From a virus, in IMG/VR virus record IMGVR_UViG_3300032893_000018, positions 1-64,000 of that record: a DNA stretch of 64,000 nucleotides. One strand, 5' to 3'. Positions 35,992 to 64,000 of this stretch are shown piece by piece. Under the pieces are notes generated by a model. That model was not told the DNA's origin and searched no databases. It saw only the letters and a list, made by a program, of their open reading frames with translations. How positions within the stretch are numbered: position 1 is the stretch's first letter; every line of letters starts with the position of its first letter. A program made the position numbers and the translations under genes.

Positions 35992-37076
35992 CCATCAACA
36001 GCCGCGCGAGGCTTCGAGTATCGCGACAGCATGAACACCGACGGTGTTGCGACGTTCGAGCCGTCCATCAACAGCCGCGCGAGGCTTCGAGTATCGCGAC
36101 CCCGAGCACGACGAGAACTCGTCGGGCCATCAACAGCCGCGCGAGGCTTCGAGTATCGCGACGACCGATGACGGCGAGGCAGTTGTCGCGCCCGACGAAC
36201 CATCAACAGCCGCGCGAGGCTTCGAGTATCGCGACAGCTCTCCGAGTACCCCACGTCTTGGGACTTCTACGAATCCATCAACAGCCGCGCGAGGCTTCGA
36301 GTATCGCGACGCGTCGCTGCGGCGTCGGCGGGTCACGCGAGCTCCCCCATCAACAGCCGCGCGAGGCTTCGAGTATCGCGACAAGACCCGGCGAACCCCA
36401 CCGGCAACGACCTGTCCGCCATCAACAGCCGCGCGAGGCTTCGAGTATCGCGACAAGTAGAACACGATCGCTCCGACCACGGTCACGACGAGCTGCCATC
36501 AACAGCCGCGCGAGGCTTCGAGTATCGCGACGCATCAAAGAGCGTGAGTGGTACGGGGCCGTCGATCGCGGGCCATCAACAGCCGCGCGAGGCTTCGAGT
36601 ATCGCGACATGTTCTCGACCCTTTCGACCTGCTCGCGTCCCGCCCCATGCCGCCATCAACAGCCGCGCGAGGCTTCGAGTATCGCGACGCGGCACGCCTC
36701 CGGGACATCGCGGACCGCGCGCCGCCATCAACAGCCGCGCGAGGCTTCTTCGAGTATCGCGACGAGTCGGCACTGCACCGCGCGCCGCACGAGGTCGGCC
36801 ATCAACAGCCGCGAAGGGCTTCGAATACTTCGACCGTCGAGCACGCGGACCGGTCTCCCGCCATCAACAGCCGCGAAGGGCTTCGAATACTTCGACCATG
36901 GACGATCCGGGAGCGAGCGGCGGCGTACGCACACAAATAACAGCCGCGACGGGCTTCGAATACTTCGACCCCCACACGAGCAGCCATCAATAGCCGCGAA
37001 GGGCTTCGAATACTTCGACCGGTGGTAGCTGCCTGCCGCTTTATCAACAGCTGCTAGGGGCTTCGAGTACCTAGAC
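35992..37076 (+). CRISPR. CRISPR array: 16 repeats (36 bp), 15 spacers (14-44 bp)
   Basis: 11x CCATCAACAGCCGCGCGAGGCTTCGAGTATCGCGAC (11th has a 3-bp insertion), 4x the CCATCAACAGCCGCGAAGGGCTTCGAATACTTCGAC type, 1x TTATCAACAGCTGCTAGGGGCTTCGAGTACCTAGAC. Confidence 0.98.
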
Positions 37077-37146
37077 GAGAGGATGTAGATGCGCGGCAAT
37101 AACGGGCGATGGCAAAGCGAAAGCTCCGAGGCAAGCTGAAAAAACT

Positions 37147-37479: not shown

Positions 37480-37492
37480 GAGGATGCGCGAA

Positions 37493-58025: not shown

Positions 58026-59420
58026 ATGTCTCAGCAACTCGTCGTAGGCATCCCGCCTGCGGTCCTCAAGCTCCAGCAGGAAGGTCTGCTCGAGCGTTCG
58101 TTCCACGACGGCCTGTTCCCGGCTCTCCTCTTCCGCGGCGAAGCGGAGGTCGACACGTGGCCCGAGCACGCCGGCACCGAGATGCTCTTCACGCGGCCCG
58201 GCCTGATGGCGCCCGTGACGGAGCCGATCGCGCCCGGCACGGACCCGCAGAGCCAGACGGTGCCCTACGAGCAGTGGGTCGCGCAGCTCGTGCGGTACGC
58301 GAACAGCATCGACACGCACATCCCGACGTCGGTCACGGCGAACGGCGATCTGTTCCTCCGCAACATCCACCAGCTCGGCCTGAACGCCGGGCAGTCGGTG
58401 AACCGCATCGTGCGCAACGCGCTCTTCGTCCCGTACCTCTCGGGGTCGACGAACATGATCGCGGCGGGCGGCAGCACGGACGACACGATCCGCGTCGCCG
58501 CGCTGAACGGCTTCACGGACGTCGTGCTGACGGCGAACGTGCGACCGGTGCCGGTGAGCTCGTCCTCGCCGCTGCCGATCACGATCAAGAACTCGGGCGG
58601 CGACATCGCGGTGAACGTCGTCGGTTTCGAGGCGGACGACCCGACCGATCCGAACGGCCCGGGCACGCTCTTCCTCGACGCCGCGCTCGGCGCGACCGTG
58701 GCGATCCGCACGCCGGTGCTCTCGGCGAACCGGCCGATCATCATCCGCGCGGGCGGCGGCTTCTCGGTCGACGCGATCAGCTCGTCCGACGTGCTGCAGC
58801 TGCAGGACATCATCAACGCGGTCCAGAAGCTGCGTAAGCAGAACGTGATGCCCCACGAGGACGGGTTCTTCCACGACCACGTCCCGACGGAGGGCGAGGC
58901 CCAGCTGTTCACCGACCAGGTCGTGCAGCGCCTCAACACGTCCCGCCCCGACGACGTCTACTACCAGGAGGCGTTCATCGGGACGATGGCCGGGTGCGTG
59001 CACTACTCGAACAACGAGTGCCCGGACTCGGACAACAGCGGCACGCTCGTGTCGACGGGCACGAGCTCGTTCTACTCGCGCGGCATCGGCGCGGAGACGA
59101 TCAACGCGGCCGGCGTGCGCATCGGTCGCCTGATCATCACGGGCCGCGGCGTCCTCCAGGAGCGGTGGATGGACGAGAACAAGTACCTCACCGAGGCCGG
59201 CGTCACCGGCAAGGTCGGGGACTTCCAGATCGTCAACATGGGCATCCAGGTCGACACCGACCGCGTGCAGCTCAAGCTGCGCGCGCCGCTGAACAAGCTC
59301 ATGGACGAGGTGAGCGCGACGTGGGCGGCGACGACGTCGTTCGCCGCGCCGACCGACATCGCGTCGGGGGGCCCTCAGAGATATAAGAGGGCCATCTGCG
59401 TGGAATTCGCAATCGAATGA
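58026..59420 (+). CDS. Major capsid protein
   Basis: 464 aa after the scaffold gene; strong AAGGAG RBS, very biased codons, structured leader. Confidence 0.75.
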   Translation: MSQQLVVGIPPAVLKLQQEGLLERSFHDGLFPALLFRGEAEVDTWPEHAGTEMLFTRPGLMAPVTEPIAPGTDPQSQTVPYEQWVAQLVRYANSIDTHIPTSVTANGDLFLRNIHQLGLNAGQSVNRIVRNALFVPYLSGSTNMIAAGGSTDDTIRVAALNGFTDVVLTANVRPVPVSSSSPLPITIKNSGGDIAVNVVGFEADDPTDPNGPGTLFLDAALGATVAIRTPVLSANRPIIIRAGGGFSVDAISSSDVLQLQDIINAVQKLRKQNVMPHEDGFFHDHVPTEGEAQLFTDQVVQRLNTSRPDDVYYQEAFIGTMAGCVHYSNNECPDSDNSGTLVSTGTSSFYSRGIGAETINAAGVRIGRLIITGRGVLQERWMDENKYLTEAGVTGKVGDFQIVNMGIQVDTDRVQLKLRAPLNKLMDEVSATWAATTSFAAPTDIASGGPQRYKRAICVEFAIE

Positions 59421-59480: not shown

Positions 59481-60275
59481 GTGAAGCGCTGCACGATCTG
59501 CACTCGCGAGCATCACCGCAAAGACGGTCGGTGCTCCGAGTGCAGTCGCGCACGCAAGCGCGGCGAGCTCTACGGCCGCGCGATCGAGTGGGGGATGCGC
59601 GCCGCGACGGGTCTTCGAGCGTGCACGCACTGCGGGGCGATGAAGGACGTCGACGCCTTCAAGTGGCAGAAGCGGAAGCTCGGCAGGCATCGAACGTCTT
59701 GGTGCAGGGCGTGCCTCAACGAGCGCGCGAACGAGTCGATGAAGGTGCTCTGGCACTCGCCCGAGCGGAGGGCCTTGCGCGGGTTGCAGCGGGGGATGCG
59801 GTGGCTTTGCAGGCCGAAGCCGTTGACTCCGAACGAACGCGCGGCCAATTGGCGGAATGCGAACCGGGAGCGTTACCGAGAGATCACGCGGTCGTTTTGG
59901 CGCACGCCGAAGGGCAAAGCCTGGATCCGGAATAACCGGGACAAGTTGAGCGCAGCCCGCAAGCGCTTCGCCAGGACGCCGCACGGCCGCGAGGCGATCC
60001 GCCTGCAGGCGCAGAAGCGGCGGGTGCTCATCGCGCGGGCGGTGTGCACGCTCACGCGGGCCGAGTGGGAGGCGATCGTCGAGCGGCACCGCCACTGCTG
60101 CGCGTACTGCGGGAAGAAGCTCGTCGGCGCCGACCTGACGATGGACCACGTCGTGCCGATCTCGAAGGGCGGGCACCACACGGCGGCGAACGTCGTGCCC
60201 GCATGCGGCTCGTGCAACTCGAGGAAGCACGCGCTGGGCCTGGAGGACTTCCTCGCGCGCCTCCGGTCGTCGTAG
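59481..60275 (+). CDS. HNH homing endonuclease
   Basis: CAYCG..LTMDHVVPISKGGHHT..NVVPACGSCNSRK. Confidence 0.92.
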   Translation: MKRCTICTREHHRKDGRCSECSRARKRGELYGRAIEWGMRAATGLRACTHCGAMKDVDAFKWQKRKLGRHRTSWCRACLNERANESMKVLWHSPERRALRGLQRGMRWLCRPKPLTPNERAANWRNANRERYREITRSFWRTPKGKAWIRNNRDKLSAARKRFARTPHGREAIRLQAQKRRVLIARAVCTLTRAEWEAIVERHRHCCAYCGKKLVGADLTMDHVVPISKGGHHTAANVVPACGSCNSRKHALGLEDFLARLRSS

Positions 60276-61965: not shown

Positions 61966-62217
61966 CCGCGGCGGCATGATCGGATCGATGGCCGATTGCT
62001 TGGTTTGCGCTGAGGCGAAACCCCTCAAGATTTGTGAGAAGTGCGGGTTGCAGATGGCCATCAGCATCTTGCAAAACGCGGTGCTGGACGATGGGCAGCA
62101 GCAGGAAGTGCTGAAGACCGCCGTCAAACGCGCGCTCGTACTGCTGGAAGCATTGGGTTGAGTGCGGCATGACCTCCGAACGTGGGCCATCTTGACCCAC
62201 CCAACAGGAGGCACGAC

Positions 62218-62892
62218 ATGACCAGGCAACCCAAGAAGGAATCGATCGACCGGGCGAAGGCGCTCATCACGGGCGGCGGGGAGGAGCGGGTGTCGCTCAA
62301 GGCGCCCGACCTGCGGGTGGCGACCTTCCACATCGTCGGCACCGCGCCGTACGTTCAGAACAAGTTTTCGAACAAGGCGCGCGAGATGATGAAGCAGACC
62401 CAGATGATGGGGTCGCAGGCGAAGACCCGGAAGGTGCGCGAGCCGAAGGACTTCGACGCCGTGTACCGGGGCGCGATGCACCTCACCGAGGACGGTAAGT
62501 ACGGGATCCCGGCGAACGCCTTCAGGTCGGCCTTGATCTCGGTGTGCCGCCTCATCGGGTTCAAGATGGTGCTCGCGAAGCTGTCGGTGTTCGTGCTGCC
62601 CGACGGGTTCGACGCGGACGATGGCACGCCGCTCGTGTTCATCAACGGCGAGCCGGTGGCGCACGAGACGGTCGGCAGGAACGACAACGGCAGCGCCGAC
62701 ATCCGCGTGCGCCCGATGTGGCGAGAGTGGTCGGCCGACGTGCGCGTGCGGTTCGATGCGGACCAGTTCTCGCACAAGGACGTCGCGAACCTGCTGATGC
62801 GCGTCGGCATGCAGGCGGGCGTCGGCGAGGGGCGGCCCGACTCGAAGAACAGCGGCGGCATCGGCTGGGGCACGTTCGAGTTGGAGGGCTGA
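62218..62892 (+). CDS. Stand-alone Cas7/RAMP-like RRM protein (224 aa)
   Basis: TFHIVGTAPYVQN (beta1-G-P), YGIPANAFRSAL, RPMWREW...VRFD, Gly-rich loop GVGEGRP..GGIGWGTFEL; AGGAGG RBS. Confidence 0.75.
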   Translation: MTRQPKKESIDRAKALITGGGEERVSLKAPDLRVATFHIVGTAPYVQNKFSNKAREMMKQTQMMGSQAKTRKVREPKDFDAVYRGAMHLTEDGKYGIPANAFRSALISVCRLIGFKMVLAKLSVFVLPDGFDADDGTPLVFINGEPVAHETVGRNDNGSADIRVRPMWREWSADVRVRFDADQFSHKDVANLLMRVGMQAGVGEGRPDSKNSGGIGWGTFELEG

Positions 62893-62895
62893 GCG

Positions 62896-63339
62896 ATGGC
62901 CGAGATTACCGACAAGGTCATCGACAGGCTCGAGGCGCTGAGGAAGAAGGGAGGTGGCGTCCTCACGCCCGAGGCCGTGCTCGCCGACGCGAAGGCGAAG
63001 GCGAGCCCGCTCCACGCGCACTTCGACTGGGACGACACGGTAGCGGCGCACCGCTACCGGCTGATCCAGGCGGGGCAGCTCATCGTGCGCGTGAAGGTCA
63101 CCATCGAGCCGCGGACGCAGCGCGACGTGCAGGTCGACGTGCAGATGTACGAGCAGACCGGGCAGGAGCAGGGCGAACGCGTGTACCGGCACATCGCCGA
63201 CATCGCGACGAACGAGGAGTACTACGCCGAGCTGCTCGACTCGGCGAAGAAGGAGCTGCAGGCATTCCAAAGGAGGTATCAATCGCTCAAGGAGCTGCGG
63301 GCGCTCTTCGAGCAGATCGAGAAGTTGTTCGCGGCCTGA
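62896..63339 (+). CDS. Helical partner protein of the RAMP-like gene (147 aa)
   Basis: LTPEAVLADA..SPLHAHFDWDDTVAAHRYRLIQAGQLI; starts 3 bp after the RAMP stop. Confidence 0.75.
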   Translation: MAEITDKVIDRLEALRKKGGGVLTPEAVLADAKAKASPLHAHFDWDDTVAAHRYRLIQAGQLIVRVKVTIEPRTQRDVQVDVQMYEQTGQEQGERVYRHIADIATNEEYYAELLDSAKKELQAFQRRYQSLKELRALFEQIEKLFAA

Positions 63340-63342
63340 CCA

Positions 63343-63670
63343 CGCAGGCGCCGCATCTCTTCGCTCCGCGCCACAACACGGTCCTCCTCACCGCTCCGCA
63401 ACGCAGGCTACGCCACGCCCCGCTTCACGCAACCCCGCCGCACCAGCCATCGCAGGCTACGCACCGTTCCGCCGCGCTACGCCCCGCCCGTACTCCGCCG
63501 CCCACTTCATCGCAGGCTCCGCTCCGCTCCGCCACGCGTGTCAGCACAACGCACCGCCACGCTCATCAGCTCACCGCAGGCCTCGCTCGTCTCTCCGGTC
63601 CTGGCACGGCTCATCTGTGCTTCGCAGGCATCGCCACGCACCGTCACGCATCGCATCGGCCGGCAACGCT
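63343..63670 (+). ncRNA. Pentamer-periodic array of six CGCAGGC-headed units; putative guide RNA array
   Basis: Heads at 63343, 63402, 63451, 63511, 63575, 63623. Each unit is CGCA plus n x (triplet + NN), with triplets mostly CGC/CAC/CTC. Confidence 0.75.
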
Positions 63671-63686
63671 GGTTATCATCTGAACG

Positions 63687-64000
63687 GTGAAGGTCGACCT
63701 CCGGGACGCCGGGCGCGCGCTCGCGCAGCTCGGCATCGGCATGAACCGAGCCGCTGAGCGCGGGCTCCTCTCCGCGGCGATCCGCGGCGTGCAGATCATC
63801 CAAAGCCAGATCATCCCGTCGAAGGTCCCGCAGCCGGTCGACCGCGGGCTCTACCGCGCCGGGTGGAAGTGGGGGCCGGTGCCCGGCGGCGGCGAGCTGT
63901 GGAACTCGGAGCCGCACGCGCCGCTGATCGAGTTCGGCGTGCGCGCCGGGAACATCAAGGTCGGGCGCAAGATGATCGACGCGCTCACCGAGTGGGCGAT
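63687..64000 (+). CDS. HK97 gp10-like neck/tail-completion protein (3' end outside window)
   Basis: PVDRGLYRAGW...NSEPHAPLIEFG motif. Confidence 0.65.
   Translation, partial: MKVDLRDAGRALAQLGIGMNRAAERGLLSAAIRGVQIIQSQIIPSKVPQPVDRGLYRAGWKWGPVPGGGELWNSEPHAPLIEFGVRAGNIKVGRKMIDALTEWA

Follow-up and report, generated by a model that had tools for sequence, protein, structure and literature searches.

A probable phage VIPR system with CGC repeats in a structural-gene module

Results

We analyzed a compact cassette of two genes and a pentamer array near the end of a 64,000-nucleotide stretch of viral DNA (the window), which is the first 64 kb of the IMG/VR virus record IMGVR_UViG_3300032893_000018 (93,897 bp, 69.3% GC, CheckV completeness 100%). 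An earlier note, made from the letters of the window, had suggested here a non-CRISPR RNA-guided system composed of a solo Cas7/RAMP-like protein, a partner gene and an RNA array, and the two open reading frames (ORFs) and the non-coding array are all present where it had placed them. The first gene, vipr, extends on the + strand from the ATG at 62218 to the stop at 62892 (224 aa), with AGGAGG 6 nucleotides (nt) 5' of the ATG, and its product is assigned to the Vipr-family RAMP proteins (Cas7-like) by phrog_4652, the Vipr profile and the AlphaFold2 fold. The second, a vap-like accessory gene on the same strand (ATG 62896, stop 63339), encodes a helical protein of 147 aa that matches phrog_15946 (E 3e-21). 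The array occupies 63346-63669, and its first CGCAGGC begins three bases past the partner stop.

VIPR (Viral Interference Programmable Repeat) was described in April-June 2026 as RNA-guided DNA silencing (bioRxiv 10.64898/2026.04.26.720920, 10.64898/2026.04.26.720927). A VIPR locus has a Vipr RAMP of roughly 20 kDa, accessory vap and vrRNAs of 9-16 YNNGG repeats; one Vipr protomer is bound per repeat, with GGY sequestered and NN presented, and DNA binding skips one base for every repeat (10.64898/2026.04.26.720920,.720927). Seven types were distinguished, 'staggered' arrays are among the architectures, and the alternative repeats are NNNGG, YNNNG and NNNNG (10.64898/2026.04.26.720920,.720927). 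The earlier note had named phage VIPR systems as a precedent; they are published, and SUSP1 works by the protomer-per-pentamer logic. The SUSP1 locus in NC_028808 contains genes for proteins of 195 aa and 146 aa flanked by GGT/NN arrays.

The Vipr-family protein

The 224-aa protein and the SUSP1 Vipr belong to the same PHROG, phrog_4652, which is matched by the former nearly over the full length (E 7e-18) and by the latter with E 1e-96. BLASTP of the 224-aa protein against SUSP1 Vipr gave E 1e-8, with R165..P207 paired to R138..P180; its family profile matched the PDB chain 36pp_D, 'SUSP1 Vipr protein' (E 6e-7), and hhalign returned a probability of 95.5%. Homologues are numerous (5383 at E <= 0.001 in 90% clusters, 2546 representatives at 50% identity). 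The searches of Pfam, NCBIfam and PADLOC, including its Cas models, detected no match.

The RAMP fold, which the earlier note proposed to check by structure prediction, was recovered. The AlphaFold2 model, built from an alignment of 74 sequences, has a predicted local distance difference test (pLDDT) score of 93. The best Foldseek matches of this model were Cas7-family subunits (Csm3, Cmr4, type VII Cas7 and gRAMP, E about 1e-5), and VIA-align placed Csm3 at the top (Z 11.2, 152 residues, root-mean-square deviation 3.4 A), the top 50 matches all being Cas7-family. The RAMP-type motifs pointed out previously are alignable with SUSP1 Vipr as well: IVGTAP of beta1 corresponds to ITGTRP (IVGTAPYVQN versus ITGTRPFLSH, with N48 opposite H17) and GVGEGRP of the G-loop corresponds to GVGDWRP, while GVGEGRP...GGIGWG carries the invariant glycines.

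In SUSP1 Vipr, R138 and D177 are essential, D177 hydrogen-bonds G1 and the pocket excludes a purine at triplet position 3 (10.64898/2026.04.26.720920 /.720927). The helix 1 element and the G-loop were named as RNA-binding surfaces in the SUSP1 Vipr cryo-electron microscopy paper (10.64898/2026.04.26.720920 /.720927). The equivalents of R138 and R179 are kept here as R165, invariant in the clade, and R206, and the D177 position remains acidic as E204, a conservative change that is the majority residue of the clade. The intact ORF retains all family-invariant residues (G197, G205, R206, G214, G218) in addition to R165. The two proteins differ as follows: outside the C-terminal third their identity is about 20%, the invariant glycine G205 stands in place of W178, and the G-loop is 8 residues longer here. 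Judged from homology and the modelled fold, the 224-aa protein is a Vipr.

The partner protein

Homologues of the 147-aa partner were detected by tblastn beside Vipr homologues in 46 of the approximately 60 related loci described below. The earlier note had called this product helical, in agreement with the AlphaFold2 model (pLDDT 78), in which an N-terminal domain of three helices is followed by one long helix at the C terminus. The wide fold search gave Myb/helix-turn-helix-like three-helix DNA-binding domains as the best matches (Z about 5, below significance); Foldseek returned nothing below E 1, there was no match to Pfam or to PDB sequences, and in the Atlas the partner is found in viral hypothetical clusters only. 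The partner is not related to SUSP1 vap1. By analogy with other vaps described in the VIPR paper, our guess would be a DNA-binding accessory role.

The pentamer array

Six copies of CGCAGGC start at 63343, 63402, 63451, 63511, 63575 and 63623, and NNCGC-type pentamers follow each copy. The lag-5 identity of the array is 0.48; first-order Markov shuffling, done 5000 times, gave 0.32 +/- 0.028 and at most 0.42 (z 5.6). Lags 10, 15 and 20 are raised too. Neither the window nor the complete 93,897-bp genome has a region of higher lag-5 periodicity, and the array is the sole strongly 5-nt-periodic stretch of that genome. The in-phase composition of the pentamers is C 0.73 at position 3, G 0.58 at position 4 and C 0.81 at position 5, while positions 1-2 are variable and G-poor. 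The periodicity together with this composition indicates that the array is real and not a chance occurrence.

We parsed the array into six candidate vrRNA units, all on the + strand, with head-to-head intervals of 59, 49, 60, 64 and 48 nt. Unit 1 (63346-63404) is AGGC with 11 pentamers (59 nt, a length of 4 mod 5) and unit 2 (63405-63453) is AGGC with 9 pentamers (49 nt). Unit 3 (63454-63513, 60 nt) has AGGC, 11 pentamers and one extra base, the register being shifted by 1 nt mid-unit. The best preserved is unit 4 (63514-63577, 64 nt), AGGC with 12 pentamers and CGC in 8 of the 12 triplets; unit 5 (63578-63625, 48 nt) is degenerate, with one CGC among 8 triplets, and has probably decayed. Unit 6 (63626-63669, 44 nt), AGGC with 8 pentamers, is followed by 17 nt and the Neck1-like GTG at 63687. 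At least 55% CGC triplets are kept in four of the six units.

None of 100 dinucleotide shuffles of the array's + strand RNA folds as poorly as that RNA itself (z +4.2), which is what one would predict for an RNA that has to stay single-stranded to bind protein, and the - strand is ordinary (z 0.9). The Rfam scan of 62000-64000 gave no match to a hammerhead or any other known RNA, which argues against a ribozyme between the units.

Related loci and their arrays

The relatives comprise approximately 60 loci from cultured phages, metagenome-assembled genomes, IMG/VR contigs and metagenome contigs, with proteins 31-63% identical to the 224-aa Vipr. The triplet and array comparisons were made for the approximately 58 relatives with DNA, whose proteins are 47-63% identical; the closest protein homologues (P0002-P0007, 65-68% identity) and also P0077, P0078 and P0108 are outside this set. 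The cultured carriers are Cyanophage Cy-LDV1, Mycobacterium phage Quico and other Cheoctovirus phages, and Gordonia phages (e.g. Pipp).

The earlier note had proposed to look for 5-nt arrays beside homologues, and they are present on the vipr strand in these loci: all except a few short or truncated contigs have a strongly 5-nt-periodic array punctuated by GCAGGC. The units of the relatives are AGGC followed by whole pentamers, with a length of 4 mod 5 in 193 of the 238 distinct units and modes at 44, 49, 54, 59 and 64 nt, and the array at 63346-63669 fits this unit grammar. L009, the closest of the relatives with DNA, likewise has vipr, partner and array in this order. Such abutting of units is probably what the VIPR paper calls a 'staggered array'.

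Gordonia phage Pipp (MN234179) has a GGC/NN array with GCAGGC heads (L004:3556-3835) directly after gene 42, its Vipr homologue. Pipp gene 43 ('hypothetical protein', L004:3584-3853) overlies this array, and the coding-sequence call is probably spurious. In Mycobacterium phage Quico (NC_028751) a GGC/NN array of approximately 300 nt (L003:2592-2880) is located upstream of the Vipr homologue in the early region, adjoining cro-like and antirepressor genes. A Vipr homologue is also encoded in some 27 related records of cultured phages of Mycobacterium smegmatis. Among these phages the one that was looked up belongs to Cheoctovirus, and the array was read in Quico alone.

The CGC triplet and the Vipr substitutions

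Base 1 of the in-phase xGC triplets is G in 77-100% for nearly all relatives, whereas it is C in 91% at 63346-63669. The unit heads keep GGC (CGC-A-GGC) despite the CGC body, so the description in the earlier note, GGC in the first triplet of each unit and CGC-type triplets in the rest, was correct, and the CGC body is unique among the approximately 58 related loci examined. An AGC body with GGC heads was detected in L179 (100%, L179:717-917) and L015 (51%, L015:3600-4380), and the L183 array mixes GAC and GGC. In many relatives CGC ends each unit, and occasional CGC repeats are present in L009, suggesting that C at base 1 is tolerated elsewhere in places and is nowhere the rule. The IMG/VR scan for CGCAGGC plus three NNCGC pentamers returned at least 120 stretches; none was periodic among the matches listed, and these look like chance in GC-rich DNA.

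Five substitutions, W94K, A109V, T118V, R141F and V200A, distinguish the Vipr of the CGC locus; the positions concerned are 90-100% conserved among the relatives with DNA, and none of these changes is carried by those relatives. In a set of 270 family proteins no other has V200A or the full five-change combination, while K94 and F141 are common to three other proteins (P0077, P0078 and P0108) and could be a swapped interacting pair. A109 is in helix 1, a single turn away from where SUSP1 E71/M72 align, and V200 is aligned to SUSP1 C173 in the G-loop. The terminal branch of this Vipr is 0.91 compared with a median of 0.083 in a quick tree of unsure placement, in which the L179 branch is long too. 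Both AGC-type loci, L179 and L015, whose arrays are independent of each other, have E204A, at the position aligned to SUSP1 D177; canonical members lack this change, suggesting that protein and fixed triplet co-vary in the clade.

Genome setting

The 5' neighbours of the cassette are the major head gene (58026-59420), an HNH endonuclease gene (59481-60275) and small unannotated ORFs; on the 3' side the GTG at 63687 starts a gene with a 'tail completion or Neck1' match (phrog_5). The cassette had been described as inserted between two neck genes, of which the downstream one was found and the upstream one was not confirmed. The head gene on the 5' side and the Neck1-like gene on the 3' side place the cassette in the late structural module. 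The best phage matches of the major head protein are only 26-30% identical (Streptomyces, Ralstonia and Komagataeibacter phages). The HNH endonuclease gene is flanked by the major head gene on one side and by the small head/neck ORFs on the other.

Neither class 1 cas genes nor CRISPR repeats are among the annotated neighbours adjoining the cassette, as had been noted before. The phage also has a CRISPR array, at 35992-37082, 25 kb from the cassette, with at least 15 copies of the 36-nt repeat CCATCAACAGCCGCGCGAGGCTTCGAGTATCGCGAC, variant classes at the far end and a lone repeat copy at 37492. The search of its spacers against GenBank phages, as possible competitors, gave no protospacer match.

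A 17-bp imperfect palindrome, TGGGCCATCTTGACCCA, is located at 62183-62199 (no strand), 18 nt 5' of the vipr start, as a candidate operator or promoter element. With at most 3 mismatches the near-palindrome TGGGCCATnnTGrCCyA has only three sites in the 93.9-kb genome (21617-21633, 34239-34255 and 62183-62199), each directly 5' of a gene, one of which is vipr; the first two share wider context. From this sequence pattern, the near-palindrome may be a common operator.

Targets

Read as NN with one skipped base, the six guides matched the phage's own 93.9-kb genome no better than shuffled guides or other skip rules (0-3), in agreement with the finding of no self-targeting in the VIPR paper.

Discussion

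We consider it very probable that the cassette is a phage VIPR system with CGC repeats, located in a structural-gene module. The reading of the array as a pentamer code with one guide per CGCAGGC unit, proposed in the earlier note, is supported by the Vipr homology and the shared unit grammar. By homology to SUSP1, vipr, the vap-like gene and the array would be co-transcribed on the + strand, and the transcript would give six guide RNAs of 44-64 nt, each starting at A-GGC. One Vipr protomer would then bind each pentamer by its fixed triplet and leave the NN dinucleotide exposed, and the filament would bind double-stranded DNA, reading NN-x-NN-x with one skipped base, and silence the target, which by analogy is likely to be a competing phage or satellite.

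The locus is minimal as in VIPR, with vipr and one accessory gene and no cas genes or CRISPR array attached, and like most VIPR it is virus-encoded, the cassette being among structural genes of a complete virus record. The canonical VIPR triplet is GGY, whereas here the body is CGC and GGC is present at the unit heads only. The published definition admits 'a related consensus' (YNNNG etc.), so the CGC body does not exclude membership; CGC/NN fits the YNNNG description of the VIPR paper, and several triplets at 63346-63669 are CAC.

The cassette resembles the SUSP1 and Pseudomonas fulva type II VIPR in having a homologous Vipr, two genes with same-strand downstream pentamer RNAs, and a phage origin. 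Compared with SUSP1, it has no 3' tail hairpins or per-guide flanks, the units abut, the partner is unrelated to vap1 and the fixed triplet is CGC, not GGY. It is closer to the GCAGGC-punctuated Vipr homologues (Cy-LDV1, Quico, Pipp and IMG/VR contigs), with which it shares the phrog_15946-like partner and units of AGGC plus n x 5 nt with 8-12 repeats, but the body triplet there is GGC. The cultured phages have their cassette in the early/immunity region (cI/cro/antirepressor, excisionase), whereas here it is between head and neck genes. The accessible text of a further report (10.64898/2026.10.21.760802) describes 21 clusters of VIPR-like arrays with non-canonical triplets (GAC/NN, CAC/NN, WGT/NN, TGH/NN), which are similar to the present array in the period of 5, the non-GGY triplet and the adjacent Vipr-like fold; CGC/NN and the grammar of GGC heads with CGC body are not named in that text. 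The distinct code variant proposed in the earlier note holds for the CGC body, which is unique among the loci examined. The system is not of a new kind: VIPR is already published, non-canonical triplets have already been reported in general terms, and the CGC body is the only unusual point.

Several observations weigh against this explanation. The exact one-skip patterns of units 1, 2 and 4 gave 0 hits in IMG/VR, and no natural target was found; the partial pattern of unit 4 gave one hit in IMG/VR (21 of 24 bases, in a contig of 41% GC) and the partial pattern of unit 6 gave 34, nearly all in AT-rich contigs, and both results were judged to be chance. The array is imperfect: unit 5 is degenerate almost throughout, and the register is broken in two of the five head-to-head intervals. 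Neither a sigma-70-like promoter nor a terminator was recognized at the cassette. No other CGC-type array was found, leaving the CGC variant without comparative support, and the link of E204A to AGC repeats is not strict, as L177 has A204 with mostly GGC repeats. N48 and E204, the equivalents of the SUSP1 G1 contacts, are unchanged in the CGC-locus Vipr, so no structural reader was identified for the switch from G to C.

Some of these points would be explained if the cassette were a decaying or inactive VIPR remnant, with a drifted protein and an array without functional guides: the failure to find a target, the off-register intervals, the degenerate unit 5, the long branch, and the changes at nearly invariant positions, which no relative with DNA has. 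Random decay, however, would not give the same base 1 in most body triplets (C in 91% of in-phase xGC). The ORF is intact and confidently modelled (pLDDT 93) with R165 and every family-invariant residue kept, the + strand still avoids secondary structure, and four of the six units have kept their CGC triplets at the level given above, and we consider a remnant improbable. It is very unlikely that the array is transcribed from the - strand into G-rich GCG/NN RNAs similar to the arrays of the relatives. All of those are G-rich (G 0.40-0.53), and at 63346-63669 only the - strand is so, but the non-palindromic GCAGGC head is on the vipr strand here and in all relatives, and its complement GCCTGC is absent from the relatives' arrays except for stray single copies in three loci. 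Transcription from the - strand would also oppose the flanking genes and would place a purine at triplet position 3, which is excluded by the SUSP1 pocket, and the RNA of that strand has neither unusual folding nor folding avoidance.

The fold itself could suggest the Cas7 subunit of a class 1 CRISPR-Cas system, since the modelled protein matches Csm3/Cas7 and shares with the type III/VII Cas7 proteins (Csm3, Cmr4, gRAMP) the RRM/RAMP core, the thumb and the glycine-rich loop (Z 10-11 over about 150 residues). The identity to CRISPR Cas7 is, however, 8-12%, neither NCBIfam nor PADLOC gave a Cas model match, there are no partner cas genes and no CRISPR repeats next to the cassette, and the phage's CRISPR array is 25 kb distant; Cas7 has a step of 6 nt with contiguous pairing, whereas VIPR has a step of 5 nt and a gapped code. 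Similarly, the array might not be guide RNA, being instead coding sequence or a DNA-structural repeat, and a 379-codon ORF (62544-63683) formally spans it, but this ORF overlaps both real genes out of frame and a period of 5 is incompatible with coding. Together, a Cas7 subunit or a non-guide array is the least credible of the alternatives, with almost no probability left to it.

For the VIPR system with CGC repeats, which we prefer, we infer a shifted RNA-scaffold specificity from the CGC body and the rare Vipr substitutions. A more specific proposal, which we make tentatively and regard as rather doubtful, is that the change of the body from GGC to CGC, with the GGC head retained and the Vipr substitutions, is a co-evolved scaffold switch that makes the system orthogonal to GGC-type systems and to the orphan vrRNAs of competitors. 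Orphan vrRNAs can hijack or redirect a phage's Vipr (10.64898/2026.10.15.759431). If there was such a scaffold switch, the A-GGC head, which does not vary, would act on its own as a cue for processing the units or nucleating the filament, and would be recognized in another way than the body repeats.

VIPR is only months old, and from natural variants of its RNA scaffold one can read which elements of the code the protein dictates. The locus provides a matched natural pair, a Vipr with rare or absent substitutions and a CGC/NN array, for comparison with the mostly GGC/NN relatives, and the Mycobacterium smegmatis phages could serve as a culturable model of the clade. The position of the cassette further shows that VIPR can be housed in a late structural operon, and the phage concerned has a CRISPR array of its own. 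If the CGC specificity is real, it would point to residues that set triplet recognition and would provide an orthogonal scaffold for multiplexed VIPR tools.

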